Shown: positions 3,620 through 63,400 of the stretch, one piece after another
How the letters are laid out: each line of letters begins with the position of its first letter
Numbering within the stretch: the stretch's first letter is position 1
Source of the DNA: Bacteroidota bacterium
GTDB taxonomy: Bacteria > Bacteroidota > Bacteroidia > AKYH767-A > OLB10
Assembly: GCA_031409815.1 (NCBI GenBank)
Contig: JANNXV010000011.1
Span: forward strand, 7,148-71,147
Direction: 5' to 3'
DNA: 64,000 nucleotides
Program-made: the position numbers and the translations under genes
The notes under the pieces: generated by a model
Database searches by the model: none
What the model was told of the DNA's origin: nothing
The model's input: the letters and a program-made list of their open reading frames with translations, nothing else

Positions 3620-4099
3620 TTGTTGCCAATGAAAATTAATATTCGCAAAAGTAGGAAAGAAGATATGCCGCAGGTGTTAGAATTAATCCGCGAGCTGGCA
3701 TTGTTTGAAAAAGCACCCCATGAAGTAACCAATACGGTGGAGGATATGATTGCAGACGGATTTGGTGCGCAACCGGTTTTTAAATGCTTAGTAGCAGAAA
3801 CAGAAAATAAACTTGTGGGCATAGCAATCTATTATACAAAGTATTCAACTTGGAAGGGGAAAGGCACCTATCTCGATGACATTATTGTTACACAGTCGAT
3901 GCGCAGCAAAGGAATAGGAAGATTATTGTTTGACGAAGTGCTAAAAGAAAGCCGTGAAGCGGGAATGAATCAGTTGCACTGGCAAGTGTTGGACTGGAAT
4001 GAACCGGCAATTAACTTTTACAAAAAACACAATCCGAGTTTTGATGATGAATGGATTAATTGTAAGCTTACAAAAGAACAGTTGAATGAAAGTATTTAA
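3620..4099 (+). CDS. GNAT family N-acetyltransferase
   Basis: 159 aa with an acetyl-CoA-binding motif (GKGIGRLLFDEVLKESREAG) and a C-terminal NFYKK. It overlaps the downstream aspartokinase by 14 nt, which suggests an operon. Confidence 0.8.
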   Translation: MLPMKINIRKSRKEDMPQVLELIRELALFEKAPHEVTNTVEDMIADGFGAQPVFKCLVAETENKLVGIAIYYTKYSTWKGKGTYLDDIIVTQSMRSKGIGRLLFDEVLKESREAGMNQLHWQVLDWNEPAINFYKKHNPSFDDEWINCKLTKEQLNESI

Positions 4100-5360
4100 G
4101 TTTGGTGGAGCATCGGTGAAAGATGCAGCGGGAGTAAAAAATGTTGCAACTGTTTTGCAATTGTTTCCTAACCAGGATTTAGTGGTGGTGATTTCTGCGA
4201 TGGGAAAAACAACCAACGCCTTGGAAAAAGTGGTGCATGCATATTTTCACGAGAAAGAAATGGCGCATCTGATGTTGGAAGAAGTAAGAAGCTATCATCG
4301 CAGCATTATGGACGATTTATTTGCTGATTCAACACACCCGATATTTGAAAAAGTAAATAATTTTTTGGTGGAGATTGACTGGGTGCTGGAAGAAGAACCA
4401 CGCAGCTATGGATTTGTATATGATCAGATTGTTTCCATCGGAGAATTGATTTCAACAACTATTGTAAGTGCGTACTTAAATTCAGTTGCCATAAAAAATG
4501 CCTGGCAGGATGTACGTGATGTTTTGCAAACCGACAATACGTATCGCGAAGCAAAAGTGAATTGGGAAATGAGCGGTGATTTAATCGGAAAAATAATTCC
4601 TCCGTTATTCAATAAAGAAAATCACATTGTTATCACTCAAGGTTTCATCGGCAGCACTTCTGAAAACTATACTTCTACCTTAGGAAGAGAAGGTTCGGAT
4701 TATACAGCATCCATATTTGCCTACCTTTTAAATGCAGAATCGGTAAGCATCTGGAAAGATGTGCCGGGTGTATTGAATGCTGATCCGAAATTTTTTAAGG
4801 ACGCACAAAAATTAGAACAGATTAGTTATCTCGATGCAATTGAGCTGGCATATTATGGTGCATCGGTCATTCATCCGAAAACAATTAAGCCGTTAGAAAA
4901 TAAAAATATTCCGTTGCATGTAAAATCATTTGTTAACCCATCTTCAAAAGGAACTTTGATTGCACGCGACCTTGAAACAAAACCTTTGGTGCCTTCTTTT
5001 ATTTTTAAAACAAACCAGGTGCTGATCAGTATCTCAGCAAAAGATTTTTCATTTATTGCAGAAGAAAACCTGAGTACTATTTTTTCCTGCTTTGCGGAGT
5101 GTGGTGTAAAGTTAAACCTGATGCAAAATTCTGCTATCAGCTTTTCTGTTTGTGTGGATGATGACGAAGAAAAATTACCCAAGCTTATCGAGTTATTAAA
5201 GAAAGACTACAAAGTGCTTTACAACAAAAATTTACAGTTATACACCATACGTCATTATTTTCCTTCAACAGTAGAAACACTTACTCACAACCGCGAAATA
5301 CTTTTGGAACAACGCAGCAGAAACACTGCGCAAATTGTGATGAAGGAAGAAGAGAAATAA
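4086..5360 (+). CDS. lysC: monofunctional aspartate kinase
   Basis: 424 aa. The N-terminus has the amino-acid kinase signature MKVFKFGGASV. The GSDYTA and DVPGVLNADP motifs are present, and the C-terminus has ACT-like regulatory domains. Confidence 0.85.
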   Translation: MKVFKFGGASVKDAAGVKNVATVLQLFPNQDLVVVISAMGKTTNALEKVVHAYFHEKEMAHLMLEEVRSYHRSIMDDLFADSTHPIFEKVNNFLVEIDWVLEEEPRSYGFVYDQIVSIGELISTTIVSAYLNSVAIKNAWQDVRDVLQTDNTYREAKVNWEMSGDLIGKIIPPLFNKENHIVITQGFIGSTSENYTSTLGREGSDYTASIFAYLLNAESVSIWKDVPGVLNADPKFFKDAQKLEQISYLDAIELAYYGASVIHPKTIKPLENKNIPLHVKSFVNPSSKGTLIARDLETKPLVPSFIFKTNQVLISISAKDFSFIAEENLSTIFSCFAECGVKLNLMQNSAISFSVCVDDDEEKLPKLIELLKKDYKVLYNKNLQLYTIRHYFPSTVETLTHNREILLEQRSRNTAQIVMKEEEK

Positions 5361-5366
5361 ATACTG

Positions 5367-7058
5367 TTATTCAGATTCTGATTTTGACCGCGGCTTACGT
5401 TTCGGTTTGTCAGATTCGGATTTAGGACTTTTACTCTTCCCTGATCCTGTCATCACTTTTAGCATATTAATTTCATCTTCTGATAAAAATCTCCATCTGC
5501 CGCGAGCTAAATCTTTTTTGGTGAGTCCTGCAAAAATCACACGGTCTAATTTTTTCACTTCGTAATCAAAGTGTTCAAATATTCTTCGAACAATGCGGTT
5601 TTTTCCGCTGTGTATTTCCACACCCACCATTGTTTTGTCGCCAGCACCTTCATCATCGTAAGCAATCTCATCCACTTTAATAAAACCATCTTCCAGTTCC
5701 ACACCTTCTGCAATAGCATTCATGTGTTCCTTTTTTAATGGCTTGTCTAATTCAACATGATACACTTTAAAAATATTGGAACTCGGATGCGTGAGTTTTT
5801 TGGTCATCTCACCATCGTTAGTAAGCATTAGCAAACCGGTAGTGTTTCTATCTAATCGACCTACCGGATAGAAGCGTTCTTTTCCGGCACTTTTTACCAA
5901 CTCCATCACAGTTTTCCTTTCCTGCGGATCATCGGTTGTTGTGATGTAATCTTTCGGCTTGTTCAAAATCAGGTAAACAAGCTTCTCGCTTTTCATACGC
6001 TCTCCGTTGTAGCGGATATCGTCATCAGCATATACTCTTGTTCCAAGCTCAATCACTGTTTCTCCATTCACACTAATCACTCCTGCTTCAATTAATTCAT
6101 CCGCTTCTCTTCGCGAACAAATGCCGGAGTTGGCAATAAAACGATTTAACCGAATGCCTTCTGTTTGTGTGGTGGTTGATTCAGTAGTCTTGCTTCTTTC
6201 GTTTTTACCGGGACGTTTAAATTCTTTCTTTTCATACGAACGGCTTTCTGTAGAACCAAAACGGGATGGTTTCCGGTCAGAAAATTTATTGTCTGTAAAA
6301 CGGGAACTACCTTCTGCTCGGCCACTTTTATTTTTTGAAAAACTCTTTTCCTCTTTATAAAACTTTCCGAAAGGCTTGCCCTCATTATTTTTTTTCTCTG
6401 CACGATAATTTCGCTCACCAGATTTTTTGCGGTCTTCTTTATTACTTCCTCTTCTGTCTTCACTAAAATTTCGGTCTCTGGGTGTTCTGCGTTCGTCACT
6501 ACTTCGCTCATTTCTGTCGCCACCAAAACTATTTTCTCTTGCCGGTCTGCGATCATCATTGCTGCGTTCACTTCGTTCTCCACCAAAACTTTTATCTCTA
6601 AATGGCTTACGTTCTCCTCCTTCTCTTTTATCCCCAAAACTTTTTTCTCTGAAAGGTTTGCGATCGCCACTTTCTCTTTTGTCGCCATAACTTATTTCTC
6701 TAACCGGCTTGCGATCATCGTTACGGCCTTCTCTTCTGTCGCTATCAAATTTTTTTTCTCTGAAAGGTTTGCGATCATCACCGGCTCTTCTGTTCTCCGT
6801 GTATCCGCCTTCGCGTCTGGGTGGTTTAGCATTTGAAAAACTTTTCCCATCTTTTTTATCTACACGCTTACGCATTGGCTTGCCATCCGATTTAGTCCAG
6901 CCCGCTTCCGATTTATCTGCATCGCGATATTTTTTAAACCCAGTGGCCGGTTTAACTTCTCTACTGCTATTAGGTCTCTTTTTATCGCGGCCCGAATCTT
7001 CGCGACCACCGCTGCGACCTTCTGAATTAGTTCTTCTCATTTGTTGTAAGTATTTCAA
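5367..7058 (-). CDS. rluB: RluB-type 23S rRNA pseudouridine synthase with long N-terminal Arg/Asp/Glu/Lys-rich tandem-repeat extension
   Basis: The C-terminal half carries an S4 domain (IRLNRFIANSGICSRREADELI) and the RsuA/RluB catalytic core (FYPVGRLDRNTTGLLMLTNDG). The N-terminal ~320 aa are low-complexity (RKPFREKSFGDKREGGE-like repeats), encoded by ~54-nt tandem repeats at ~6430-6800. Confidence 0.85.
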   Translation of the reverse strand: MKYLQQMRRTNSEGRSGGREDSGRDKKRPNSSREVKPATGFKKYRDADKSEAGWTKSDGKPMRKRVDKKDGKSFSNAKPPRREGGYTENRRAGDDRKPFREKKFDSDRREGRNDDRKPVREISYGDKRESGDRKPFREKSFGDKREGGERKPFRDKSFGGERSERSNDDRRPARENSFGGDRNERSSDERRTPRDRNFSEDRRGSNKEDRKKSGERNYRAEKKNNEGKPFGKFYKEEKSFSKNKSGRAEGSSRFTDNKFSDRKPSRFGSTESRSYEKKEFKRPGKNERSKTTESTTTQTEGIRLNRFIANSGICSRREADELIEAGVISVNGETVIELGTRVYADDDIRYNGERMKSEKLVYLILNKPKDYITTTDDPQERKTVMELVKSAGKERFYPVGRLDRNTTGLLMLTNDGEMTKKLTHPSSNIFKVYHVELDKPLKKEHMNAIAEGVELEDGFIKVDEIAYDDEGAGDKTMVGVEIHSGKNRIVRRIFEHFDYEVKKLDRVIFAGLTKKDLARGRWRFLSEDEINMLKVMTGSGKSKSPKSESDKPKRKPRSKSESE

Positions 7059-7440: not shown

Positions 7441-7521
7441 GTGTCGTTGACTAAGTTAATTTGGTTGATTAAGTTAACTGAGTCAACCAAATTAACTGAG
7501 TCAACCAATCAACTTAATTAA
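7441..7521. repeat. array of the 17-mer TTAACTGAGTCAACCAA (two exact direct copies plus two to three degenerate inverted copies)
   Basis: Exact copies lie at 7474-7490 and 7492-7508. Inverted degenerate copies are GTTGACTAAGTTAA at 7445-7458 and TTGGTTGATTAAGTTAA at 7461-7477. The array sits between the ldcA stop and the yraN start, both on the minus strand. Confidence 0.6.
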
Positions 7522-8454
7522 CTATTTAAGAAATTTTAAGTCAACTGTTTCACTAACACTTAACTCAACATTTGCTCCCATTATCAACGCTAAATTTCTT
7601 TTCACATGTCCTGCCGGAAAATCAAAGCAAACAGGATAATTGTATTCATCCACATGCTCCCTGATTATTTCTTCTGCTGTTTTTCCAAAAGGAATGGTGT
7701 TGTCGCGCATATCACTCATTCCTCCAACAATCAGTCCGGCTAAATTTTGCAGTTTGCCACTTCGTTTCAGTTGCATCATCATGCGGTCAATATGATAAAG
7801 ATATTCATCTAAATCTTCGATGAAAAGAACTTTTCCTTTGGTGTCGATATCTGAAACACTTCCACTCAATGCATAGAGCAACGAAAGATTTCCTCCGCAT
7901 AAAATTCCTTTAGCATTTCCATTCTTGTTTAATGATTGATTATTTGAAGCAGAAAATTTGTAATGCAACGTCACTCCTGTAAAAGCTTTGCCAAGTGATT
8001 CAACAGCATCTTTATCAAACTTTTCATGTTGCATATTAAAAAGCATACAACCGTGAATACTTTGTGTTTGAAAATGGTTTTGCAGATGGTTATGAATCAC
8101 TGTCATATCACTATATCCAACCAACCATTTGGGATATTGTTTGAATTTTGAAAAATCAAGTTTGTCAATAATGCGCACTGTTCCATATCCACCACGCGCG
8201 CTGATGATTGCTTTTACACTTTTATCATCCAACATTGTTTGCAAATCTTTTGCCCGTTCTGCATCCGTACCTGAATATTGATTTTGTTCTTTAAAAATAT
8301 TTTCACCTAACCTCACATTGAAACCCCAGCCTTCTAAAATTTTTATTCCATCGGCTAATTCTTTAGCAGCAACTTTTCGTGCTGGTGCAACAATACCGAT
8401 GGTATCTCCTGGTTTTAGAAATTGGGGTTGTGTCACTTTGTATCTTTGATGCAA
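7522..8454 (-). CDS. ldcA: LD-carboxypeptidase (peptidase S66, muramoyltetrapeptide carboxypeptidase)
   Basis: 310 aa with GDTIGIVAPA, RGGYGTVRI and GYSDMTVIH, which are S66 Ser/His/Glu triad regions. Confidence 0.8.
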   Translation of the reverse strand: MHQRYKVTQPQFLKPGDTIGIVAPARKVAAKELADGIKILEGWGFNVRLGENIFKEQNQYSGTDAERAKDLQTMLDDKSVKAIISARGGYGTVRIIDKLDFSKFKQYPKWLVGYSDMTVIHNHLQNHFQTQSIHGCMLFNMQHEKFDKDAVESLGKAFTGVTLHYKFSASNNQSLNKNGNAKGILCGGNLSLLYALSGSVSDIDTKGKVLFIEDLDEYLYHIDRMMMQLKRSGKLQNLAGLIVGGMSDMRDNTIPFGKTAEEIIREHVDEYNYPVCFDFPAGHVKRNLALIMGANVELSVSETVDLKFLK

Positions 8455-8597: not shown

Positions 8598-10706
8598 ATG
8601 TCCCGTTATCTCGTTACAGCTGCACTTCCCTATGCAAATGGCCCTGTTCACATTGGTCATATTGCAGGATGTTATTTGCCCGCTGATATTTATGTGCGAT
8701 ACCTTCGTCTGATTAATGAAGACGTGAAATTTATTTGTGGTTCAGATGAGCATGGTGTTCCCATTACCATAAAAGCTCGTAACGAAGGGGTAACTCCTCA
8801 GCAAATAGTTGATAAGTATCATAGTATGATGAAGAACTCTTTCGCTGAGTTTGGAATCTCGTTTGATATTTATTCGCGCACAACTAATAAAGTACATCAT
8901 GAAACGGCACAGACATTTTTTAAAAAGCTGTATGATGACAACGTTTTTACTGAAGAAGTTACTGAGCAATATTATGATGAGGAAGTAAAACAATTTTTAG
9001 CCGACCGTTATATTGAGGGCACTTGTCCGCGGTGTGGTTTTGCGCGTGCTTATGGTGATCAGTGCGAGAATTGCGGATCATCATTAAACCCGACTGATTT
9101 GATAAATCCTGTTTCAAAGCTTAGTGGAAAGGCTCCGGTATTGCGTAACACGAAAAATTGGTTTCTGCCATTAAACAAATTTGAAGCGGATTTAAAAAAA
9201 TGGATTGGCTCCCACCAGGAAGACTGGAAAGTAAATGTGTATGGTCAGTGCATGAGTTGGCTGAACACAGGTTTGCAACCACGTGCAATGACGCGTGACC
9301 TGGATTGGGGGGTGAAAGTTCCGTTGCCTGATACGGAAGGAAAAGTTTTGTATGTGTGGTTTGATGCACCGATTGGTTACATCTCTGCAACGAAAGAGCT
9401 GCTACCAAACGACTGGGAAAAATATTGGAAGGATAAAGATTCAAAACTCATTCATTTTATCGGCAAGGACAATATTGTTTTTCATTGTTTGATATTTCCC
9501 GCCATGTTGAAAGCGCATGGCGATTATTTGTTGCCGACCAATGTTCCTGCCAATGAGTTCTTAAATTTAGAAGGAGATAAAATTTCTACTTCGCGCAACT
9601 GGGCGGTGTGGTTGCATGAGTACCTGATTGATTTTAAAGACAAGCAGGATGTGTTGCGATATGTATTATGTGCAACTGCTCCCGAAACAAAAGACAATGA
9701 TTTTACCTGGAAAGATTTTCAGGCGCGAAACAATAATGAGTTGGTTGCAGTGTTCGGAAATTTTGTGAATCGAACATTGGTGCTTACTCAAAAATATTTT
9801 GAAGGAAAAATTCCTCCACATCACAAGCTGATTGATGCTGACCAGGATTGTATCTCTGCAATACAAGCAGCAAAAAGAAACATTAGCGACAGCATTGAAA
9901 AATTCCGTTTCCGTGAAGCGTTGAATGAACTGATGACGTTAGCGCGTGTCGGAAATAAATATTTAGCCGACACCGAACCATGGAAAGTCTATAAAACAGA
10001 TCCTCAACGTGTAGAAACTATTTTATACATCGCATTAGAAATTACCGCTGCACTTGCTGCATTGTGTGAGCCATTTCTTCCTCATACATCAGCAAGCTTG
10101 TATGCCATGCTCAATCTTGAAAAAGTAGATTGGGTAAAAGATTTGACCGGACAAATAATAAAACCCGGACATGCTTTAGGTGAAGTAAAATTATTATTTG
10201 AAAAAATTGAAGACGAAATGATGGACAAGCAAGTGGAGAAGCTACATGCTTCGAAAGCAGTGAATGCACAGCAGTCGGCAGTTGTCAGTGAAAAGGGGAC
10301 AATTGAAAAAAATGCTTCGACTGTGCTCAGCATGACCCAAGAGCCACAGGTCACACTGAGCGAAGTCGAAGTGTTGAAACCCGAAACTTCCTTCGATGAT
10401 TTCAGCAAAATGGATTTGCGTGTGGCAACTATTATCGCTGCTGAAAAAGTGGAGAAAGCTGATAAATTATTAAAGCTTACGCTTGATACCGGCATTGACC
10501 AGCGCACTGTTGTGAGTGGAATTGCATTGAACTACAAACCCGAAGAAATAATAGGACAACGCGTAACACTACTTGCAAATCTTGCTCCACGAAAAATCCG
10601 TGGTATCGAATCGAAGGGAATGATTTTGATGGCGGAGAATGAAAAAGGGGAATTGTGTTTTATTGCTCCGACTAAGGAGTTTGGGAATGGGAGTGGGATA
10701 AGCTAA
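8598..10706 (+). CDS. metG: methionyl-tRNA synthetase with C-terminal EMAP/tRNA-binding domain
   Basis: 702 aa with HIGH ([11 protein letters not shown]), a zinc knuckle (CPRCGF...CENCG) and KMSKS-like motifs. A C-terminal tRNA-binding domain follows ([22 protein letters not shown]). Confidence 0.95.
10334..10371 (+). repeat. remnant of the GTCATGCTGAGCGAAGTCGAAGC hairpin family embedded in-frame in metG linker
   Basis: GCTCAGCATGACCC at 10325-10338 and CTGAGCGAAGTCGAAG at 10356-10371 match the left and right arms of the 14193-14250 hairpin. Together they are translated as [17 protein letters not shown]. Confidence 0.55.
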
Positions 10707-10779: not shown

Positions 10780-13236
10780 ATGATTGTATTAAAATTCGGT
10801 GGCACTTCTGTTTTGGATGCGGACAGAATTAAACATGTTGCCACTATACTTAAATCGTATCACGCCAAAAAAATAAAAATTGCTGCGGTGTTTTCTGCTT
10901 TTGGCGGAGTCACCGACCAGTTGATTGAAGCCAGCCGCATGGCAGCCGCGAACGACCAACATGCGTTTATCACATTGAAAGAAATTGAGAAGCGCCATAT
11001 TGATGCAGTTAAGAAACTGCTTAATAAAAATTTGTTGGATAAAACGCTGGCTCATGTAAATCTTTCGCTGAAAGAACTCACGGATATGATTCACGGTGTG
11101 TTCTTAGTGCGTGAGTTGTCCGACAGAAGTCTGGATTTTATTGCAAGTTTCGGTGAGCGGCTTTCGGCATATATCATTAGCCAGTATTTAAAAGAGCAAC
11201 GTATAAATGTTGATTTCACGGATACACGCGACTTGATAAAAACGGATAAACATTTTGGTTCAGCGCATGTTGATTTTACCAAAACTAATGTGAATCTTAA
11301 AAAATATTTTCGCGATTTAAAATCAACAGCCATCGTTACGGGTTTCATCGGTTCATCAAAAGAGGGTGAAACGACTACACTTGGCCGTGGTGGTTCTGAT
11401 TACACAGCCGCCATTATTGGTGCTGCGCTGGATGCAAAAGAAATTCATATCTGGACAGATGTGGATGGTGTACTCACAGCAGATCCTCGCAAAGTGAAAA
11501 AAGCATTTCCGTTGTTGCATCTTACTTACGAGGAAGCAATGGAGATGTCACATTTCGGTGCGAAGGTGATTCATCCGCCAACGATACAACCTGCGCTTGC
11601 AAAAGGAATTCCGTTACGAATTAAAAACACTTTCAATCCTGATTATGACGGAACGCTGATCACACAAAAAAGCAAGGGACAGGAATTTATGATTAAAGGA
11701 ATTTCGTCTATTGATAAAATTTCGTTGCTCACGATGATGGGTAGCGGCATGATTGGTGTTGCAGGAATTTCTGCGCGTTTGTTCGGTGCGCTTGCAAAAA
11801 ATAAAATCAGTGCGATATTGATTACGCAAGGCTCATCCGAACATTCTATTTCGTTTGCCGTTGTGCCTGCTGATGCTGAACATGCACAACACGCCATCCG
11901 CGAAGAATTCTCGTTAGAGATGAAAGCGAAATTGATTAACGAAATCAAAGTGGAGAAAAATCTTTCCATTATTGCCATTATCGGTGAAAACATGAAACAC
12001 GTTCCCGGAATTTCAGGACGTTTGTTTGGTGCGTTGGGTAAGAATGGAATCAACGTTGTGGCTACTGCACAAGGTTCGTCAGAGTTAAATATTTCAGTTG
12101 TTATCAACGATCAGAATCTTTCCAAAGCATTAAACGCCATTCACGAATCTTTCTTTTTATCAGGAACAAAAACGCTCAACATTTTTATGGTGGGAGTTGG
12201 TTTGATTGGAAAAACATTGATTGAGCAAATAAACAAACAAGCCGCCTATCTTAAACAAAATAAAGCGCTCGAATTAAATTTTATTGGTGTTGCCAACAGT
12301 AAAAAAATGTTTTTTAATGAGAATGGTATTGCAAGAAAAAATATTTCGCAACAATTAGAATACGCAAAACAAACGATGAGCATGAAATCGTTTGTGAAAG
12401 AAATGTGCGCATTGAATTTACCCAACAGTGTTTTTGTTGACAATACTGCGAATGCTGATGTCGCTTCTTTTTACAATGAGATTTTAGAATCGAGCATCTC
12501 TGTTGTTACCCCAAACAAAGTTGCTAACTCAGGAACGTATGCTCAATATCTGAAACTAAAAAACAGTGCAGCAAAAAGAAACGTTAAGTTTTTGTATGAA
12601 ACAAATGTGGGCGCAGGTTTGCCGGTGATAACTACGCTGAACGATTTAATGACGAGTGGTGATAAAATTTTAAAGATTGAAGCCGTGTTGTCAGGAACGC
12701 TTTCTTTTATTTTTAATAATTACAAGCATCCGAAAAAATTCAGCGACATTGTAAAAGAAGCACAGGAAAAAGGATACACCGAACCCGACCCTCGCACTGA
12801 TTTAAGCGGGTTGGATGTAATGCGCAAACTCTTAATCCTCGCCCGCGAATGTGGAATTGGTTTGGAATCCAATGATATTACGATACAAAAACTGTTGCCA
12901 CCGGAATGCATGAAGCCAAAAACAATTCCTGATTTTTATATTGCGTTGCAAAAAGCAGATACACATTTTGAAAAGATGCGTGATGCAGCAGAGCAAAAGG
13001 GAAATATGTTACGCTTCATCGCAAGCTTAGATGGAACAAAAGCAAGTATCAGTTTGCAGGAAGTAAATCAATCGCATCCGTTTTATAATCTTTCAGGAAG
13101 TGATAACATTATTTCCTTCACCACAGAACGTTACAAAGAACGTCCGTTGGTTATCAAAGGTCCCGGTGCGGGTGCGGAGGTAACTGCTGCAGGTGTGTTT
13201 GCTGAGATTATTGGGATTAGTAACTATCTTTCCTAG
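10780..13236 (+). CDS. thrA: bifunctional aspartokinase / homoserine dehydrogenase
   Basis: 818 aa. The N-terminal aspartokinase has MIVLKFGGTSV and GGSDYTA. Two ACT domains follow. The C-terminal homoserine dehydrogenase has an NAD-binding motif (IFMVGVGLIGKTL). Confidence 0.9.
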   Translation: MIVLKFGGTSVLDADRIKHVATILKSYHAKKIKIAAVFSAFGGVTDQLIEASRMAAANDQHAFITLKEIEKRHIDAVKKLLNKNLLDKTLAHVNLSLKELTDMIHGVFLVRELSDRSLDFIASFGERLSAYIISQYLKEQRINVDFTDTRDLIKTDKHFGSAHVDFTKTNVNLKKYFRDLKSTAIVTGFIGSSKEGETTTLGRGGSDYTAAIIGAALDAKEIHIWTDVDGVLTADPRKVKKAFPLLHLTYEEAMEMSHFGAKVIHPPTIQPALAKGIPLRIKNTFNPDYDGTLITQKSKGQEFMIKGISSIDKISLLTMMGSGMIGVAGISARLFGALAKNKISAILITQGSSEHSISFAVVPADAEHAQHAIREEFSLEMKAKLINEIKVEKNLSIIAIIGENMKHVPGISGRLFGALGKNGINVVATAQGSSELNISVVINDQNLSKALNAIHESFFLSGTKTLNIFMVGVGLIGKTLIEQINKQAAYLKQNKALELNFIGVANSKKMFFNENGIARKNISQQLEYAKQTMSMKSFVKEMCALNLPNSVFVDNTANADVASFYNEILESSISVVTPNKVANSGTYAQYLKLKNSAAKRNVKFLYETNVGAGLPVITTLNDLMTSGDKILKIEAVLSGTLSFIFNNYKHPKKFSDIVKEAQEKGYTEPDPRTDLSGLDVMRKLLILARECGIGLESNDITIQKLLPPECMKPKTIPDFYIALQKADTHFEKMRDAAEQKGNMLRFIASLDGTKASISLQEVNQSHPFYNLSGSDNIISFTTERYKERPLVIKGPGAGAEVTAAGVFAEIIGISNYLS

Positions 13237-14169
13237 ATGAATCAATCCATAAAAGTTTTCGCCCCGGCAACGGTAGCCAACGTAGGTTGCGGTTTTGATG
13301 TATTGGGTTTTGCAATACACGGACCCGGTGATAAAATCATCATGCGATTGAATGAAACAAAAAAAGTTTCTGTTGAATCAATCACAGGTGATAATGGTTC
13401 GCTTTCAAAAAACGCACATGAAAATACTGCAAGTGTAGCAGTGCTTGCAATGCTTAAAAAATTAAAATCAAAACAAGGATTGAGTATTGAGTTGCACAAG
13501 CAAATGCCGTTGAAAAGCGGTTTAGGTTCGAGTGCGGCAAGTGCAGTTGCAGGGGTATTTGCATTGAATGAATTATTAAACCGCCCGTTTTCAAAAGAAG
13601 AATTAATTCCGTTTGCAATGGAAGGTGAGCGTGTTGCATGCGGCACTGCTCATGCAGATAATGTGGCTCCATCCATGTTAGGCGGTTTAGTTTTGGTGCA
13701 TAGTTTAAATCCTTTGCAAGTAGTAAAGATTAATTCACCTTCAAAATTATTTTGTTGTGTGGTGCATCCACATTTAGAATTAGCTACAAAAAAATCAAGA
13801 GCTGCATTACCTAAACAAATCCCCTTACAAACAGCAGTAAAGCAATGGGCAAATGTTGGAGGATTGGTTGCAGGTTTTATGAAAAAAGATTTTGCTTTGA
13901 TCGGTTCTTCTATCGAAGATTTTGTTGCTGAACCCAATCGTTCAAAACTGATTAAAGGATTTGATGAAGTAAAGAAAGCTGCTATGAAATCAGGAGCATT
14001 AGGTTGCAGCATCTCAGGTTCGGGACCGACAGTATTTGCTTTGAGTGATAATAAAGAGAAATGCAAGTCAATTGCAAAAGCGATGCAAAATGCTTTTGCA
14101 AAATTTAATGTTGGGAGTGAACATTATGTTTCTACTATTAATAATAATGGAGTAAAAATTATTTCCTGA
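13237..14169 (+). CDS. thrB: homoserine kinase
   Basis: 310 aa with a GHMP kinase motif (PLKSGLGSSAASAVA). The gene starts immediately after the thrA stop. Confidence 0.9.
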   Translation: MNQSIKVFAPATVANVGCGFDVLGFAIHGPGDKIIMRLNETKKVSVESITGDNGSLSKNAHENTASVAVLAMLKKLKSKQGLSIELHKQMPLKSGLGSSAASAVAGVFALNELLNRPFSKEELIPFAMEGERVACGTAHADNVAPSMLGGLVLVHSLNPLQVVKINSPSKLFCCVVHPHLELATKKSRAALPKQIPLQTAVKQWANVGGLVAGFMKKDFALIGSSIEDFVAEPNRSKLIKGFDEVKKAAMKSGALGCSISGSGPTVFALSDNKEKCKSIAKAMQNAFAKFNVGSEHYVSTINNNGVKIIS

Positions 14170-14192
14170 GATGAATAATGCCTCAACACAAT

Positions 14193-14250
14193 GCTTCGAC
14201 TTCGCTCAGCATGACCCACACGTACGGGTCATGCTGAGCGAAGTCGAAGC
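14193..14250. repeat. perfect 25-bp-stem hairpin (GCTTCGACTTCGCTCAGCATGACCC / GGGTCATGCTGAGCGAAGTCGAAGC, loop ACACGTAC); member of a dispersed hairpin family; likely terminator between thrB and thrC
   Basis: The arms at 14193-14217 and 14226-14250 are exact reverse complements. Confidence 0.8.
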
Positions 14251-14262
14251 ACTATCAATTAA

Positions 14263-15567
14263 ATGCTAATGCAATTATATTCCACAAAAAATAAATCAAA
14301 ATTATTTACGCTTGAAGAAGCTGTTGTAAAAGGTTTGCCCGATGACAACGGCTTGTTCATGCCTGTTGAAATTCCTTTGTTGCCAAAATCATTTTTTCGG
14401 GAGATGCAACAAATGTCGTTTCAAGATATTGCTTACACGGTTGCTCAAACTTTAGTTGGTGATAGTGTTCCTGTTAATGAATTAAAAAAGATTGTTCATC
14501 ATGCTGTAAACTTTGCAGCGCCTATTATTGAGATAGAAAAAAATATTTATGTTTTAGAATTATTTCACGGACCCACACTTGCATTTAAAGATTTTGGTGC
14601 TAGGTTTATGTCTGGTTTGCTGCAATACTTTGTTGGCAGACAGGGAAAGAAATTAACCATCCTTGTTGCTACTTCAGGTGATACAGGTGGAGCGGTAGCT
14701 TCCGGTTTTTATGACGTGGAGGGAATTGAAGTAATCATTCTTTATCCTTCAAAAAAAGTAAGTGGTTTGCAGGAAAAACAACTTACAACGCTAGGGAAAA
14801 ATATTACAGCATTAGAAGTTGACGGAACATTTGATGATTGCCAGCATTTAGTGAAGCAAGCGTTTCTTGATGCTGAAATCAATCAGCATCTGCGTTTAAC
14901 TTCTGCCAACTCTATCAATATTGCGCGATTGATTCCTCAGACATTTTATTATTTCAATGCAATTGCACAATTAAAAACTACGGCTAGGGAAATTGTTTTT
15001 TCTGTTCCCAGCGGAAATTTTGGAAACCTCACAGCAGGATTAATTGCAAAGCGAATGGGATTACCTATTCATAAATTTATAGCAGCAACGAATGCAAATG
15101 ATATTGTACCCAACTATTTATTGAAAGGAATTTTTTCTCCAAAAGCAAGTGTGGCAACTATCAGCAATGCAATGGATGTGGGTAACCCAAGTAATTTTTA
15201 CCGCATGATGGATTTGTATGACAACGACCTGAGCAAAATTTCAAAAGACATTGCTGGCATCAGCATCACCGATGAAGAAACTAAACAAACCATCCAGTCA
15301 GTTTTTCAAAATCTTCATTACACACTCGACCCTCATGGAGCAGTTGGATATCTTGCTTTAAAGAAATATGTAGCAGCAAATTCTTTTGACAAAGCGATAT
15401 TTTTAGAAACTGCGCATCCTGCCAAATTTCCTGAAGTGGTGGAAGAGGTGACCAATGAAAAAATTGTTCTGCCAAAGCAATTGTCAGCTTTGATTTCTAA
15501 AACGAAAAGTTCTGTTTTAATGGGCAAAGAGTTTGAGAGTTTTAAGGAGTTTCTTCTAAAGAAATAA
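14263..15567 (+). CDS. thrC: threonine synthase
   Basis: 434 aa. A PLP-lysine region (PTLAFKDFG) is present, and the overall layout matches long-form ThrC. Confidence 0.9.
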   Translation: MLMQLYSTKNKSKLFTLEEAVVKGLPDDNGLFMPVEIPLLPKSFFREMQQMSFQDIAYTVAQTLVGDSVPVNELKKIVHHAVNFAAPIIEIEKNIYVLELFHGPTLAFKDFGARFMSGLLQYFVGRQGKKLTILVATSGDTGGAVASGFYDVEGIEVIILYPSKKVSGLQEKQLTTLGKNITALEVDGTFDDCQHLVKQAFLDAEINQHLRLTSANSINIARLIPQTFYYFNAIAQLKTTAREIVFSVPSGNFGNLTAGLIAKRMGLPIHKFIAATNANDIVPNYLLKGIFSPKASVATISNAMDVGNPSNFYRMMDLYDNDLSKISKDIAGISITDEETKQTIQSVFQNLHYTLDPHGAVGYLALKKYVAANSFDKAIFLETAHPAKFPEVVEEVTNEKIVLPKQLSALISKTKSSVLMGKEFESFKEFLLKK

Positions 15568-15590
15568 TAGTAAGGTTTGTAAATTCCATT

Positions 15591-15655
15591 TTGTCATGCT
15601 GACGAAGGAAGCATCTCTCTGGTGCCGCGAGATGCTTCCTTCGTCAGCATGACAA
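15591..15655. repeat. perfect 27-bp-stem hairpin (TTGTCATGCTGACGAAGGAAGCATCTC ... GAGATGCTTCCTTCGTCAGCATGACAA); same family as 14193-14250; terminator after thrC
   Basis: The arms at 15591-15617 and 15629-15655 are exact reverse complements. The 11-nt loop is TCTGGTGCCGC. Confidence 0.8.
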
Positions 15656-15731
15656 ACAATAGTGAGCATGATAGAAAATCGCAATAATGACCACTCTGTT
15701 TTCGTAGCTTTGCCGCTGATTAATACCTCAC

Positions 15732-19908: not shown

Positions 19909-21225
19909 TTAAGCCATCACCAAACTTGATTGTTTTACTTTGTTGGCAACCATCTTAGTTACATTTTTATTTAACCCGAATGCTGATTTTATTTTCTCAA
20001 CATAATCCAGTTTCTCCCAAGTAAACAGTTCCACTTTCTTAACAATTTTTTTGCCATTCACCGTAAAGGTTTTGGTTACTTCTTTTGGCTCACGACCCAA
20101 ATGTCCGTAAGCAGCTGTTTCAGAATAAATAGGGTTCTTTAATTTCAAGCGGTCGATAATAGCTGCCGGACGCATATCAAAAATGGCTGCTGCTTTTAAT
20201 GCAATTTCTCCATCCGTCATTTTTACTTTAGCAGTGCCATAAGTGTTTACAAACAAACCCACCGGTTTTGCAACACCAATTGCATAAGCTACCTGCACCA
20301 ATATTTCGTCAGCAATGCCGGCTTTCACTAAATTCTTAGCCATGTGACGTGCAGCATAAGCAGCAGAACGGTCAACCTTCGAAGGGTCTTTACCTGAAAA
20401 AGCACCACCACCATGTGCGCCTTTTCCGCCATAAGTATCCACAATAATTTTGCGGCCTGTTAAACCGGTATCTCCATGCGGACCACCAATCACAAACTTT
20501 CCGGTTGGGTTAATATGGTAAGTAATTTTATTATCAAACAAAGCCTGAACACGCTTTGGTAATTGTTTCTTTACTCTTGGTATAAGAATGTTGATCATAT
20601 CATCCTTAATCTTCTTCAACATCACTGGCTCTTTTGCAAAATCATCGTGCTGAGTACTTACAACGATGGTATCAATACGCACCGGTTTGTTATTATCATC
20701 ATATTCAATAGTCACCTGGCTTTTTGCATCGGGGCGCAAATATTTCATTTGCTTTCCTTCTCTGCGAATTTTGCTTAGTTCGCGTAAAAGGTGATGAGCA
20801 AGTTCTAATGCTAATGGCATCATATTATCCGTTTCGCTGGTAGCATAGCCAAACATCATTCCCTGGTCACCAGCACCTTGTTCTTTGTGCAAGCCTTCAC
20901 CCGAATTAACTCCCTGGGCAATATCAGGCGACTGTTGATGCAAAGCGGTAAGAATTCCGCACGAGTTGGCTTCAAACATGTATTCAGCCTTGTTGTAGCC
21001 GATCTTTTGAATGGTTTCGCGCACCACTTCGTGAATATCAACATACGCTTTGGTGGTTATCTCACCGGCAACCACCACTTGTCCTGTGGTAACTAAAGTC
21101 TCACAAGCCACACGTGAGTGAGGGTCTTGAGCAAGCATATTGTCAAGGATAGCATCCGATATCTGGTCGGCAACTTTGTCTGGGTGTCCTTCTGATACGG
21201 ACTCTGATGTGAATAAATAAGGCAT
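19909..21225 (-). CDS. metK: S-adenosylmethionine synthetase
   Basis: 438 aa with [28 protein letters not shown] and the [23 protein letters not shown]-loop. A ~50-aa C-terminal extension is present. Confidence 0.95.
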
Positions 21226-49459: not shown

Positions 49460-49523
49460 CGTCATTGCGAGGAACGAAGCAATATTTCCATAGCAAGAGA
49501 TTGCTTCGTTCCTCGCAATGACG
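49460..49523. repeat. perfect 24-bp-stem hairpin CGTCATTGCGAGGAACGAAGCAAT...ATTGCTTCGTTCCTCGCAATGACG (bidirectional terminator between convergent genes)
   Basis: The arms at 49460-49483 and 49500-49523 are exact reverse complements, with a 16-nt loop. It begins with the GTCAT core shared with the other long hairpins. Confidence 0.8.
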
Positions 49524-57178: not shown

Positions 57179-57404
57179 TGATTAAATGAGTTACTATCCC
57201 TTTTAAAGCCTTAAATTTAACTCATGAGCAATGATTTAATTGTATCATAAGAATTTATTAACCATAACAGCCGAATTTCGCCTAAATTCAATTATTTATC
57301 CAGAAATATTATGTAATTTGCTGCCTTATTAAGGCTACCTCAAATTGCCATTTATTCTGAGCCAAATTATTACAACATGAATCACACTGTTACTAAATCC
57401 GAAA

Positions 57405-60400
57405 ATGATGAATAACAAAAAAGTTAAGCAAACGATAATTATCGTTTGCTTTTTGACTGCCTTAATTATCATTAGCTCCACCAAAAGTTGGGGCCAACTG
57501 CTTGTGCAAGATTTTAATTTTACTGGTACACTCACCGCTAACAGTTGGGTTGCACATAGTGGATCGGGTACCAACCCGATTTCTACCACTACGGGTTTAA
57601 CGTATGCTGGCCATCAAGGCAGTGGAGTGGGTAATGCAGCACTGCTTGGAAATGCCGGAGGCGAGGATGACAATATAACTTTTGCAAATCAAAATGCTCC
57701 GGATCAGTCGGTGTATTTTTCTTGTCTGGTGAGAATTACTGATGCCGCTGCAACAAAAACCGGAGACTATTTTATGCATTTAGGCACACCTGGCGGTTCT
57801 ACCTTTACTTTATTTGCTGCACGAGTATTTGCCAAAATAACCAGTAGCAATGTCAACTTTGGTATTAGCAATACATCAACTGCAACTTACGGTACAACAA
57901 ATTTTGCTAAGAACACCACTTATTTATTGGTGGTAAAATATGTTATAACTGTGGGAGGCAACGATCCTGTTTCACTTTGGGTTATTCCAACCGGCATACC
58001 AGCAACTGAAGTACTTGCCGGCACACCTGAAATTAGCAGTACAACCACAGCAGGCCAAGATGCAATTAACACTATTGCTCTTCGACAAGGTTCAAATACC
58101 ACTTCACCACAAACCGTAGTTGATGCAATCAGGGTCGGGTTAACATGGGAATCAGTAACTCCTTTGGCTGTCCCTAATTTATCAATTTCAGGTGTACAAA
58201 ATCATGGTACATTATGTCAAGGAAATGCAGGTTCAAGTATTCAATACACAATTAACAATTCAGGTGCTACGGCTGCAGGTATTGCTATCGCATCAAGTGA
58301 TGGACAGTTTGCAGTAAGTAATATTCCCGCAACAGTACCTGCTGGTGGGACAGCAAATTTCAATGTGATTTTTACTCCTTTGGCAGGAGGGGCTCAATCT
58401 TCGACAATTACTGTTACCAGTACTACATCCGGTAGTAATTCACCAACTATTAATTTAATTGGTATCGGACAAGCACCAGTAAGCCCGGTTGTATCGTCAT
58501 TGTCGGCCACAGCAATACTAACCAGTTCAGCGGTAATAAATGGAGATTTACTAACACTGGGGGTGTGTCCATCGACCACCCAAAAGGGTTTTGTTTATTC
58601 ACTTACCACAGCCAACAGCGATCCATTTGTTGATAGCGCAGGTGTTACTAAATCAGTGGTTGCCGGAGTTACTACCGGAAGCTTCTTTTTGCAATTATTA
58701 TCTCTGCCGCCCAACACTTCTTATTCTTATAAAGCATATGTTTATGATGGATCAACTTATACTTATGGAGCTGTAACCACATTTACAACTGATCCTCCTC
58801 CTTCGGCTGTAGTTTCTGTCACAGGAAGTTTGTCATCAGTTAACACTACCTATGGCACTGCATCAAATCCGGTTACCAGTTTTGGCGTTTCAGGTACCAA
58901 TTTAACAGCAGATATTTTAATAGTAGCACCATATGGGTTTGAAATGTCATCTGGTGGGTCGTATAATGATTCACTCTTATTGACCCAAACAATGGGAAGC
59001 GTTGGCAATACAACTATTGATGTTAGGCTATCAGATACAACAGATGTTGGAACCTATTCAGGTAATATTACCCTTACAAGTGCAGGCTCCAACAATCCAT
59101 TGCTCCCAACTGTTGCGAGTGTAGTTTCTCCTAAACCGTTATCCGTTTCTGGAGCGGTTGCACAAAATAAAGTGTACGATGGAAACACTTCAGCATTAAT
59201 TGATGTTAGCAACGCAACTCTTGCAGTTTTAGTAAATAATGATGTGGTAACAGTAAGCGGTGGAGGAAATTTTAATGACTCTAATGCAGGCGTAGGTAAG
59301 TCTGTTACAACTAATTTACTATTAGGAGGGGCTGATGCTGGTAACTATACGTTGAATCAACCGTCAGGATTAACAGCTAATATTCTACAGGCCGGACAGA
59401 CAATTACATTTGGAGTTTTACCAGTAAAAACATTTGGTAATGCTCCATTTAAATTATTGGCAACAGCAAGTTCGGGCCTTGTGGTTTCGTATCAAAGTTC
59501 GAATCCTTTAGTGGCTACTATATCCAATGATACTGTTTTTATTGTTGGTACAGGTACATCTACAATAACTTCCTTACAGTCGGGAAATATCAATTACAAT
59601 GCAGCTATTAATGTTCCTCAAACACTTACTGTTAATCAAGCCAACCAAACTATCACATTTAGTACGCTTCCAAATAAAACAATTGCAGATGTGCCATTTA
59701 GCCTAACGGCAACTGCCAGCTCTAATTTAACGGTTTCATATATGAGTTCTAATACTTCTGTTGCAACAGTAGTTGGAAATATTGTAACAATACAAGGAGT
59801 TGGAACTACTACTATTACGGCTTCACAATCGGGTAACGCTAATTTTTTAGCGGCTACTGATGTTGCCAGAACACTTACCGTAACTTATACCGTTATCGCT
59901 GCGTGGCAATTCGGGACACCTCAAGCTGTTGGTGACGAGGTGACTTATAATGCAACAACCAATCACACAAATATTAATTCCGTAACGCTATCAAGAGGCA
60001 GTGGAATATTGCCCACTTCTTTAAGTCGTGGATTTTCATCCAATAATTTTTCTGCATCACCAAATACTAAAGCAAATGCTATTGCAACAAACCAATTCTA
60101 TCAATTCACCATTAATCCAAAAAATAATTATATCACTTCTTTAAATACTTTATATGCAAGGCTTAGAAGAACGAGTGCCGGAGCCAATGCTTATATCTGG
60201 AGATACAGTACCGATGGAACAAACTTTTTTGATATTGGAACTGATGTAAATTATACCAGCACAGCAGATGGTGTTGATCAGGCGCAAATAAACTTAGCAG
60301 CCGTTCAGGCATTGCAACGAATAGAGAACATTACTTCAGTCACATTTCGTTTGTATGCTTGGGGTGCTACTTCTTTATCAGGAACATTTGCAGTTGGCCG

Positions 60401-63400
60401 ATATGGTTCAGGAATTACAACTAATAGTTTAGCTGTTGACGGAACGGTTGATTCGATAATGGCTCCTGTTATCAATAGTGTACTAACTGCAGCTGGTACT
60501 ACTGGCGTACCTTTTAATTACACTATTACTGCAACCAATATTCCAACCAGTTTTAGTTCTACCGTATTGCCTCCGGGTCTTGTATTAAACACCTACTCGG
60601 GAGCAATAACCGGCAATCCAACTACTGTTGGGCCGGGAACTTATAATGTTGATATTACGGTAAATAATTCAGCTGGTACTGATACAAAAACATTAGTAAT
60701 AACAATTGCAAAGGGAAATCAGACTATAAGTTTTGCTGCATTAACACCTAAAACATATGGTAATGCGCCATTCAATCTAACAGCTACTGCCAGTTCCGGA
60801 TTAGCAATTACTTATGTTAGTTCAGATACTACTGTAGCAAAAGTTACTGGCAATACCGTGACAATAATAGGTGGCGGAAACACCAATATTACAGCCTCTC
60901 AAACCGGGAATGCTGATTTCAATGCAGCTGCTGATGTAACTCAAAATTTAGTGGTAAACAAAGCAAATCAAACCATCGCATTTGGTCCATTGGCAAATAA
61001 ATTAACTACCGACCCTGCTTCTGTTCTTGGTGCAACTGCCAGTTCAGGACTAATAATTTCATATCAAAGTTCGAACCCATTAGTTGCTGTTGTTTCTAAC
61101 GACACTTTATACATTACTGGCCCGGGGACTACTACAATTACGGCATCGCAGCCTGGAAATAATAATTTTAATGCTGCCGCTAATGTGTCACAAAGCTTAT
61201 TGGTGACTGATCCTTTTGCTCCGGTTTTATCTGCAACTACACTCACAGATTTTGGTGAGGTTTGTTTAGATACCACTGCTGGACCAAACACTTTTACAAT
61301 AGCCGGATTGAATTTAAGCACTGATAGCATTGTTGTGGGACCATTGTCAGGTTTTAGTTTTTCCCTTAATGACACTACCTATTCCGACTCGTTAGTAATC
61401 ACACAATCTGGTGGCAGTTTTTCTCAATTAGTTTATGTAAAGTTTAGGCCAGTAGCAGTTCAATCATATAATGGAAATATTTTAATTAAAGGTGGCAGTG
61501 CTCCACAAATAAATGTATTTGCATATGGTATAGGTATTAATACACCTGCTTCTGTTATTACTGAAAGTGCAATTAGTGTAACACAATTATCTGCAACACT
61601 TCCTGCTACAGTTGCATCTATTGGATGTACTCCTATTTCCACTTATGGATTTGAATATAGTTTGACCAATGGATTTATTAACGGATCAGGTACTCAAGTG
61701 GCTAGTAATAATTTATCTGGAAGCGCATTCTCGGTTACATTAGGGGCTTTAATTCCTAATACTCCATATTACTATAAGGCATATGTAATAAATGCAGGAG
61801 GCACATCTTACGGAACACAGCAAAGTTTTACCACCTTAACTGTGGGAGCACCTGTTGCATTAACAGCAACAAATATTGATTCAACTAGTTTTCGAGCCTA
61901 TTGGAATGTTGTTGGTGGAGCCACTAGTTATAAGTTAGATGTTAGTACTAGTAATACATTTTTCGAGCCGGTTAACCCTATTCTTGCTGGTTGGAGTTTT
62001 CCTGTGAACGGAACAAACGTTACAGCAGATAATGCCAATACTAATAACACTGCAAAAACATTAACTACCAATGGCGGATCAATTGCTGATGCAACGGGTG
62101 CTTCAACAAGAGCTCCTTCTACAAGTTCATGGCAAAGTGGATCTGGATCTAAAAACTGGCAAATTGAAATCAACACAACCGGATTCTTTAACCTTAAATT
62201 GTCGTCTGCTCAAAGGTCTTCAGGCACTGGGCCACGCAATTTTAAAGTACAATATAAAATAGGCTCAGGACCATTTGCAGATGTGCTAGGGGGGGCAGTT
62301 TTAGTTGCAAACGATTTTACATCTGGTGTGTTAACCAACCTTTCTTTGCCTGCTGCTTGTGATAACCAAACTTCAGTAACTATACGATGGATTATGACAA
62401 GTAATACAAATGTTAATGGCGATGTAAATGGAGTTGCAAGTGGAGGTACCAGCAGAATCGATAATATTTTGGTTAGTAGTGCTATCCCATCATTTGTTGG
62501 TATTTATAATGATTTAACAGTTAATGATACTTCTTTATCAGTAGTTGGGTTATCCCCAAATACGGTATATTACTATAGAGTTCGTGCAGTAAGTATTGCA
62601 GGAACTACCGGTAATTCAAATACAATTTCAGCTCGTACATGTACCAACGCTATATTAAGCAAAAGCTATATTGAACCTTCGTGTAATGGTAACGGTAATG
62701 ATGCCTCGGCAACGGTAAATGCCACAAGTGGTACTTTACCTTATGGATATTTATGGAGCAACGGACAAACAACAGCAACTGCAACTGGTCTTAGTGGTGG
62801 AAAATATTTTATTACAGTAACTTCAAATACCGGATGTCCAGTCAAAGATTCAGTAGTGGTTGTTGCTCCCGCTCCGGCATCTCCCAAAATTATTCCTGGT
62901 AATATGTTATTGTGTTCAGGTCAAAACATTTATTTACATGTTATTGATACTGGAGCTTATTCAGGAGGTTATCCATTAGGAACAACAGTCGATTGGGTAA
63001 ATATTGTTCAAGGGTTATCGCCAAACGATAGTGTTAATTCGTCAGGCATCGCTGATTTTACAGCGGTAGTGCATATTCCATCACAAAACAATTGCACCTA
63101 TACTTCACCCACTGTAAATATTGGTACTCATCAACTTAATGTATTGCCGGTAATATCAAGCTCAACTTGTGGCATTAGTAATGGAAAAATTCTGGTAAAT
63201 GTTATCGGAACTCCACCCTTTCGTTATGAATGGTCGGATGGTACGAATCTTATTCGCGACTTAACCACTCCTAATACATCAGATTCGATAACCGGACTCT
63301 TAGGTGGATTTTATAAACTCACAGTAACAGACAATTATGGTAACTTAAATCCTGGGTTATCCTGTAGCACCGGGCAGCTAACTTATTTTGTGCCTTCAAA

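Follow-up and report, generated by a model that had tools for sequence, protein, structure and literature searches.

In this study, we analysed a 64,000-nucleotide stretch of DNA from a Bacteroidota bacterium (contig JANNXV010000011.1, positions 7,148 to 71,147; this whole stretch is called the window below), and we believe that a complete palindromic doublet resembling the repetitive extragenic palindromic (REP) sequences became fixed in frame inside metG, the gene for methionyl-tRNA synthetase (MetRS). The doublet would lengthen the tether between two domains of the enzyme by 21 residues, most likely with little consequence. We regard it as a tolerated in-frame insertion of a REP-like doublet in a disordered linker that collects repeats, and we put the probability of this reading at about 0.8. 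The insertion would have been tolerated because the tether is free in length and sequence, and in related Bacteroidota this tether has repeatedly taken up repeats, of the same family as well as of others, in what were probably independent events. The features of the gene that are concerned are the following.

Positions 8598 to 10706, plus strand: metG (methionine-tRNA ligase), an intact open reading frame (ORF) of 702 aa (ORF list, translation, Pfam).
Positions 10272 to 10394, plus strand: disordered inter-domain tether, residues 559-599 (AlphaFold2, homolog comparison).
Positions 10312 to 10374, plus strand: complete in-frame head-to-head repeat doublet, 63 nt or 21 codons (alignment, arm matches, profile matches, fold).
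Positions 10312 to 10338, minus strand: left unit, with tag GGGTC, stem ATGCT/AGCAT and loop GAGCACAGTCGA, translated as ASTVLSMT.
Positions 10339 to 10348, no strand: spacer between the two units, 10 nt long (8 nt in the intergenic copy; sequence and six-frame translation of the canonical element).
Positions 10349 to 10374, plus strand: right unit, with tag GGTC, stem ACACT/AGTGT and the consensus loop GAGCGAAGTCGA, translated as VTLSEVEV.

Pfam placed the catalytic body (class I) of the protein encoded by metG at residues 4-394 (PF09334, tRNA-synt_1g), its anticodon-binding domain, a helix bundle, at 406-550 (PF19303, Anticodon_3) and its tRNA-binding domain, which is C-terminal and of the Trbp111/EMAPII type, at 607-698 (PF01588, tRNA_bind). 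Because Anticodon_3 ends at 550 and tRNA_bind starts at 607, the Pfam domains bracket the segment and the repeat lies in the inter-domain linker. The AlphaFold2 model of the window MetRS, which was made from an alignment of 36 sequences and had a mean predicted local distance difference test score (pLDDT) of 82, gave tether residues 559-599 a pLDDT below 50, and residues 567-598 a pLDDT of 28-39 with no secondary structure. The doublet encodes part of N572 through V592, and in the model these residues, 572-592, would fall entirely within the disordered segment. The domain borders and the low pLDDT bear out the preliminary description of this DNA, made from the sequence alone, which had placed the repeat in a flexible MetRS linker. 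Across MetRS homologs, both the length and the sequence of the tether are hypervariable. The conserved motifs that flank it are 64 residues apart in the window MetRS (P0001), which is 21 more than the median of 111 homologs (43), and the modal homolog linker is likewise 21 aa shorter than that of the window MetRS.

Two arm-like strings, GCTCAGCATGACCC at 10325-10338 and CTGAGCGAAGTCGAAG at 10356-10371, are separated by 17 nt and read in frame inside metG, and here sequence and translation agree with the preliminary description. It had also matched them to the arms of the hairpin at 14193-14250. This is correct: the 24-nt arm GCTTCGACTTCGCTCAGCATGACC matches 10314-10337 on the plus strand with 2 mismatches and 10349-10372 on the minus strand with 3 mismatches, and when up to 3 mismatches are allowed there are four matches in 64 kb, namely the metG pair and the intergenic pair, where 0.00 are expected (100 shuffles). 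The idea of an embedded and translated repeat copy thus holds, and only the word remnant does not, as both full 24-nt arms are there and make a complete doublet. The arms were described as lying in direct orientation and as unable to form the hairpin; they are in fact inverted, the inner part of one arm having been compared with the outer part of the other, and the segment folds as a hairpin of about -33 to -34 kcal/mol (z = -6.5), with 0/200 shuffles equally stable. Against the unit profile described below, the two halves gave E = 1e-6 and 6e-6.

The left-unit loop GAGCACAGTCGA has two changes relative to the consensus GAGCGAAGTCGA, and the right-unit stem ACACT/AGTGT differs from ATGCT/AGCAT by compensatory changes. 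The half on the right is a proper ACACT/AGTGT unit rather than a decayed arm, which makes the doublet a head-to-head heterodimer of one ATGCT-stem unit and one ACACT-stem unit. Units identical to the right one were seen at L069, in an Ignavibacteriaceae genome, and in three non-coding doublets, L129, L131 and L133. The canonical 60-nt element is open in one of three frames, since frame 1 meets a TGA stop in the right arm and frame 2 meets one in the left arm. The metG copy avoids both TGA stops because, with a spacer that differs in length from the canonical one, its left arm is translated in frame 1 (ASTVLSMT) but its right arm in frame 0 (VTLSEVEV).

The preliminary description further invoked selection against mRNA structure in the coding sequence. 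Non-coding doublets of the same subtype typically fold at -37 to -39 kcal/mol, with a range of -17 to -46 kcal/mol; the metG copy (-33 kcal/mol) lies within this range and is just a little weaker than the typical doublets, and therefore there is no signal of such selection.

The repeat unit was modelled on 153 distinct tagged units, a biased sample, as the loci had been fetched with one particular arm. What is conserved is smaller than the whole palindrome of 58 nt. In the elementary unit of about 26 nt, an NGTC tag that stays unpaired is followed by a stem of 5 covarying base pairs, which encloses a conserved loop of 12 nt, GAGCGAAGTCGA, and two units standing head-to-head give a long hairpin of about 60 nt in which the tags face the spacer. 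In the 153 units, pairing reached 93-96% at four of the five stem positions and 82% at the fifth, the tag-proximal pair, whereas the three positions under the tag paired in only 30-76% of units, as the base composition would give, and pairing of the tag positions (30-37%) was at the chance level. Compensatory stem variants included ATGCT/AGCAT, ACCCT/AGGGT, ACTCT/AGAGT, ATTCC/GGAAT, ATGGT/ACCAT and ACACT/AGTGT; the stem is mostly 5 bp and occasionally 6-9 bp long. The loop is the best-conserved part of the unit. The first base of the tag was G in 82, C in 35, T in 27 and A in 9 units, counts that share the bias from the fetching of loci. A hammerhead-like or T-loop-like identity of the conserved loop was considered and rejected, since these motifs do not fit.

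The spread of the unit was assessed by scanning one genome per species (596 Gb) with the arm 20-mer, for which about one exact match is expected by chance. The 20-mer was found in at least 117 genomic stretches, and among the matches listed, Hymenobacter and other Bacteroidota accounted for most. Clear copies were likewise present in Planctomycetota, Acidobacteriota, Calditrichia, Latescibacterota, Omnitrophota and Ignavibacteriaceae, some of them on complete chromosomes, and some other genomes, for example JAYVZS01 and Hymenobacter spp., hold many copies. The heterodimer subtype seen in metG is present in 7 metagenome contigs with stops in all frames, and it therefore circulates as non-coding DNA. 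The non-coding heterodimers show compensatory changes from arm to arm even in the 'loop' (L129, L131, L132 and L134), for example TCGACTCCGCTC/GAGCGGAGTCGA and TCGACGGGCTC/GAGCCCGTTGA, and therefore the long hairpin is conserved too.

The position of copies relative to genes was judged from stop-to-stop ORFs of at least 150 aa over 127 sampled copies. Such ORFs contained 39 of the 127, nearly all of them as GC-rich spurious frames or upstream of the real start, and convincing mid-gene copies were limited to two metG loci. L022, L117, L045 and others had been candidates for further in-gene copies; they are without the element structure, look like chance or coding coincidences, and were set aside.

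These data bear on the possibility that the likeness between the metG segment and the intergenic hairpin is due to chance, or that the intergenic hairpin descended from the metG linker. We give it practically no weight. The bare similarity is all that speaks for it, the shuffles lead one to expect no match at all, the family is present at 117 or more loci, which belong to many genera and are almost all non-coding, the metG copies being a rare exception, and orthologous linkers are without the element.

Some other arrangements of the unit were seen in this survey. In Hymenobacter loci (L013 2847-2942, L027, L041, L070 and L090), the unit stands alone or in tail-to-tail pairs at a distance of 57-80 nt. 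At its far end it has the sequence GCGGTAGAG, a GTAG motif when read on the opposite strand (the Hymenobacter copies have GGTAGAG at the opposite end); the Hymenobacter hairpin may thus carry both kinds of REP tag. In the Bacteroidota metagenome-assembled genome JAYVZS01 (L035, L038, L048, L064, L089, L098 and L106), the unit lies within a longer conserved repeat of more than 130 nt with the layout catttcaaatatttgctattgcac...unit...GTCACCCTGAGCGAAGTCGAAGGGTG...ggctataacattttctcgcatagaaatttaaacagtttc, which suggests a larger element, similar to a miniature inverted-repeat transposable element (MITE) or to an RNA gene, built around the units.

MetRS homologs were compared on the best 120 of the 8000 found, and a neighbour-joining tree built without the linker gave three relevant clades. 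Clade A holds the window protein P0001 with P0003, P0002 and P0004, which are 91-94% identical to it outside the linker. Clade B holds P0011, P0017, P0019, P0009, P0020, P0021 and P0023, which are 89-96% identical to one another and about 75% identical to clade A. Clade C holds P0007, P0008, P0010, P0013 and P0014, together with the repeat-less P0012 and P0015. The DNA of ten linkers was compared, and remnants were sought by local (Smith-Waterman) alignment of the element with each linker against 500 shuffles. The linkers of P0002, P0003, P0004, P0005, P0017 and P0023 held no element remnant in this alignment (p = 0.12-1.0), whereas those of P0011, P0019 and P0008 matched the element significantly (p < 0.002). 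The preliminary description had proposed a lineage-specific insertion, and the absence of a remnant from P0002, P0003 and P0004 and also from P0005 (p >= 0.1) supports it: within clade A, the insertion is lineage-specific. Two candidates for decayed remnants, in P0002 (TGCTCAGC...VEV) and P0004 (ATGACCAAA), were suggestive by eye and were dropped at p = 0.12-0.47. Similarly, a 9-nt identity, ATGCTTCGA, between the 'HASK' codons (around 10246) and the start of the element was considered as microhomology; as it is absent in clade B, we take it to be a coincidence.

What fills the linker differs from relative to relative. The P0011 linker carries a full heterodimer of the window type at nearly the same position, with a spacer of about 20 nt, the right arm in the third frame (GHTESNRS) and a hairpin of -21.6 kcal/mol. 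The P0019 linker carries a solo left arm in the same frame as in P0001 (STSLSMT). In the P0008 linker (L126, around 6680-6780), four tandem 24-nt sister units, GCTTGC-TTCGACTCCGCTCA-GCAAGC, are read as (DSAQQAKI)n, and this peptide repeat is also found in P0007, P0010, P0013 and P0014 and is absent from the close relatives P0015 and P0012. In the P0023 linker (L127, 2707-2814), a GC-rich palindrome without relation to the element, about 80 nt long and folding at -56 kcal/mol, is translated as PLTPEGG...PPLGAGG, and P0020 and P0021 have peptides similar to its product. In P0003 and P0004 (L003, around 7840-7880, and L002, around 3950-4000), there is an in-frame heptanucleotide microsatellite, (GCAGGAA)n, translated as QEAGSRKQEA, in which a gain or loss preserves the frame only if it comes in multiples of 3 units. 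The linker of P0017 contains a short CCCGATAGCTATAGG palindrome. Thus, linker content is unrelated between proteins that are 94-96% identical elsewhere, and, taken as a whole, the MetRS linker is a sink that repeats enter again and again. The genomes with the element in metG also hold non-genic copies (L044, L058, L062 and L081). The preliminary description had reasoned that distant orthologs encoding the same peptide while lacking the repeat family would point away from an insertion; what was found is that P0011 and P0019 carry the element DNA itself and that other copies exist in their genomes.

The same comparison bears on an assembly artefact, in which a repeat would have led to a chimera in the metagenome-assembled contig. 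The source is apparently a single NCBI contig with no second sample, and assemblers can be confused by short repeats. However, the metG copy is a heterodimer with five differences and another spacer relative to the intergenic copy and therefore cannot be a collapsed read-through of it; the frame is exactly preserved over the 63 nt with bona fide metG on both flanks, and independent assemblies (L004, L005/L006) show the same phenomenon. We consider an artefact very improbable.

We also considered a single ancient insertion in the common ancestor of clades A and B, now about 75% identical, with vertical inheritance and with overwriting or deletion in most descendants. The copies in P0001 and P0011 are of the same heterodimer type (AGCAT-type left, ACACT/AGTGT right), their left arms share one frame (ASTxLSMTQ), which is also the frame of the solo left arm in P0019, and both copies stop 1-3 codons ahead of the conserved KPET. 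However, the carriers are not sisters, and P0003 (94% identical to P0001) and P0017 (96% identical to P0011) are without a remnant. The upstream flanks of the three copies are unrelated, and the heterodimer subtype exists in non-coding DNA elsewhere, including an Ignavibacteriaceae genome, so that shared ancestry is not required. As the linker turns over even between proteins of 94-96% identity, retention over a divergence of 25% is unlikely. We therefore hold a single ancient insertion to be unlikely. For the clade A and B copies taken alone, the sequence comparison points both ways, to independence by the scattered carriers, the unrelated upstream flanks and the subtype existing elsewhere, and to shared origin by type, frame and position. 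The carriers are dispersed within clades that are 89-96% identical outside the linker, with a different filler in each relative, and this scatter favours repeated, tolerated insertion.

The preliminary description regarded the metG copy as an exaptation. Functional exaptation would mean selection either for the peptide, as a tether whose length or composition tunes the cis-acting tRNA-binding domain, or for the mRNA hairpin, as a programmed translational pause between folding units. The hairpin still stands at -33 kcal/mol, the metG ORF is intact, and the precise spot is occupied again and again by structured repeats in several lineages, which could reflect a benefit. On the other hand, most relatives are without the insert and the modal linker is shorter by just its 21 aa, the closest orthologs have an entirely different filler or none, and two left-loop substitutions already weaken the long hairpin. 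In P0019 one arm is lost, in P0011 the hairpin has decayed to -21.6 kcal/mol, and intragenic REPs have been held neutral (PMC3733652). We found no evidence for exaptation and rate it as a quite improbable explanation; because linker length and content vary among near-identical orthologs, a tolerated, neutral insertion is the simpler reading.

In a broader proposal, the MetRS tether of this Bacteroidota group would be a specific landing pad and more than a permissive site, and the cross-phylum unit with the NGTC tag, 5-bp stem and GAGCGAAGTCGA loop would represent a third, so far undescribed class of tagged REPs that has a mobilising enzyme of its own. Hairpin repeats of several unrelated families would then be captured preferentially just upstream of the conserved KPET motif, either through targeting at the DNA level (structure or replication context) or through a benefit of an mRNA hairpin or a longer tether at the module boundary. 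We think that this is unlikely.

Several points weigh against the favoured reading of a tolerated insertion in a repeat-collecting linker. The exact family has just two doublets in the 64-kb window, which bears on its copy number in the source genome. No target-site duplication or flanking direct repeat was seen on inspecting the sequence around the metG copy and the 14191-14251 copy. REPs of the GTAG type go with a cognate RAYT gene (for an IS200/IS605-type Y1 transposase) that the repeats flank; no transposase domain was found in the 25 window ORFs scanned (about half of the ORFs, with small ORFs and some neighbours among them), a result that applies to these ORFs and not to the rest of the genome. 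The boundaries given for the insertion are those implied by the unit model, and the neutrality of the metG insert is assumed. Moreover, the heterodimer type shared by P0001 and P0011 and its near-identical position upstream of KPET could come from shared ancestry or from lateral exchange of the linker. We infer both neutrality and independence of the insertion events from the comparisons given above.

The other doublets of the window are intergenic and are as follows.

Positions 14191 to 14251, no strand: reference copy, a homodimer of head-to-head units whose 26-nt arms match perfectly on either side of an 8-nt spacer (sequence, fold).
Positions 15590 to 15656, no strand: related hairpin doublet with perfect 28-nt arms, made of sister-type units (GTCATGCTGACGAAGGAAGCATCTC; TTTGTCATGCTGACGAAGGAAGCATCTC) and lying 22 nt past the stop of thrC (threonine synthase).
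Positions 49460 to 49523, no strand: perfect doublet with 24-nt arms and a CGTC tag (CGTCATTGCGAGGAACGAAGCAAT), exactly between two convergent ORFs and 1 nt from each stop.

The arms of the reference palindrome lie at 14192-14217 and 14226-14251, and its fold reaches -53.8 kcal/mol (z = -14). It stands in the 93-nt thrB-thrC spacer, 23 nt past the homoserine-kinase stop and 12 nt ahead of the threonine-synthase start. Scanning the window with the unit profile returned only the four units of the two doublets, in metG and at 14191-14251, and a weak match to the 15590-15656 doublet (E = 0.16); this doublet and that at 49460-49523 are made of sister unit types. All three intergenic doublets lie 1-23 nt from the 3' end of an ORF, between unidirectional or convergent genes. 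They presumably act, REP-like, as RNA or DNA hairpins, or they may simply be selfish DNA.

Studies have shown that bacterial genomes carry REPs tagged with GTAG or CGTC, in which the tag is unpaired and the stem begins with A-T pairs (Di Nocera et al. 2013; PMC3733652). Most of these tagged REPs are paired head-to-head, as homo- or heterodimers whose units can fold separately or together in a single hairpin; they are located downstream of ORFs, and they are present in distant phyla, including Bacteroidetes. Intragenic REPs have also been reported, including in tRNA synthetase genes, and were explained as neutral on the ground that they lie in 'flexible linkers or loops' (PMC3733652). The CGTC families have a stem of 8-9 bp, a loop of 4-5 nt and a 3-nt tail (CCA), and their tag can also be CCTC or, often, TGTC; some CGTC REPs were equated with the Rickettsia palindromic elements (RPEs), which are in-frame palindromic insertions (PMC3733652). 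The repeat in this study resembles the tagged REPs in having an unpaired 4-nt tag at one end (here NGTC) and an A-T pair starting the stem, in forming a head-to-head homodimer (14191-14251) and a heterodimer (metG) with single or long-hairpin folding, and in its sites just downstream of ORFs, occasional intragenic copies and spread across distant phyla. In contrast to the CGTC REPs, its stem is 5 bp instead of 8-9 bp, its conserved loop is 12 nt instead of 4-5 nt, there is no CCA tail, and the first base of the tag is mostly G. On this structural comparison, the repeat stands outside all four published CGTC families.

Like REPs and REPINs, the unit is a short imperfect palindrome (about 26 nt, the REP criterion being 20-40 bp) whose inverted doublets form one long hairpin, and the placement is also alike, with 3/3 intergenic doublets of the window near ORF 3' ends. 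Unlike the GTAG-type REPs, the window copies carry an NGTC tag and no 5' GTAG. MITEs such as Correia/NEMIS and Nezha are likewise small, non-autonomous and hairpin-forming and can land in or near genes; the doublets differ from them in length (about 60-63 nt instead of the usual 70-300 bp), in the missing target-site duplication at either window copy, and in having no terminal inverted repeats apart from the hairpin itself.

The RPEs (Ogata et al. 2000, as cited in PMC3733652) are described there as in-frame palindromic insertions in functional, often essential protein genes, and as present in non-coding DNA as well. The metG copy is similar in that a palindromic repeat is in frame, at a structurally permissive place, in a gene that is intact (63 nt = 21 codons, all MetRS domains). 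In terms of that description, it differs from the RPEs in host phylum and size (RPE-1 is longer) and probably in sequence, and the likeness is one of behaviour. The RPEs are, again as cited there, abundant in Rickettsia genes, whereas here only the metG copies were clearly mid-gene among the 127 sampled. By these analogies, the event would be an intragenic insertion of the REP or RPE kind, which is a known kind, and the repeat family is probably an uncatalogued variant. Rfam at gathering thresholds found only two tRNAs in the window and no family for the repeat, scanning 14100-14340 by E-value brought up nothing but meaningless matches below threshold to hairpins such as miRNA precursors, and a literature search with the repeat sequence strings returned only unrelated primer matches.

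Some features around metG were noted in passing. The thrA (aspartokinase-homoserine dehydrogenase)-thrB-thrC cluster (10780-15567) follows directly after metG, and a second aspartokinase and an S-adenosylmethionine synthetase are nearby (4086-5360, 19909-21225), giving a methionine/threonine-related neighbourhood. Just upstream of the metG region, at 7446-7505, there is a 60-nt near-perfect AT-rich palindrome (GTTGACTAAGTTAATTTGGTTGATTAAGTT and its complement) without a spacer, between two minus-strand genes, which is unrelated to the REP-like family. A plus-strand ORF from 57381 to 64000 remains open through the right end of the window, exceeds 2206 aa, and looks like the gene of a giant protein.

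Elements of this kind yield spurious peptides such as FDFAQHD, STSLSMT and LSEVE, which can mislead annotation and alignment. A unit with a conserved 12-nt loop and a covarying 5-bp stem, present in several phyla and standing outside Rfam and the GTAG and CGTC families, may merit cataloguing. Among proteins with 89-96% identity elsewhere, one MetRS linker holds repeats as different as REP-like doublets, a solo arm, tandem units, a GC-rich palindrome and a heptanucleotide microsatellite, and the MetRS linker is thus a natural system in which the turnover of a disordered tether via repeat capture can be measured. In the reading favoured here, metG is an example of selfish palindromic repeats adding coding sequence to essential proteins at disordered linkers, a route that has been known since the Rickettsia RPEs.

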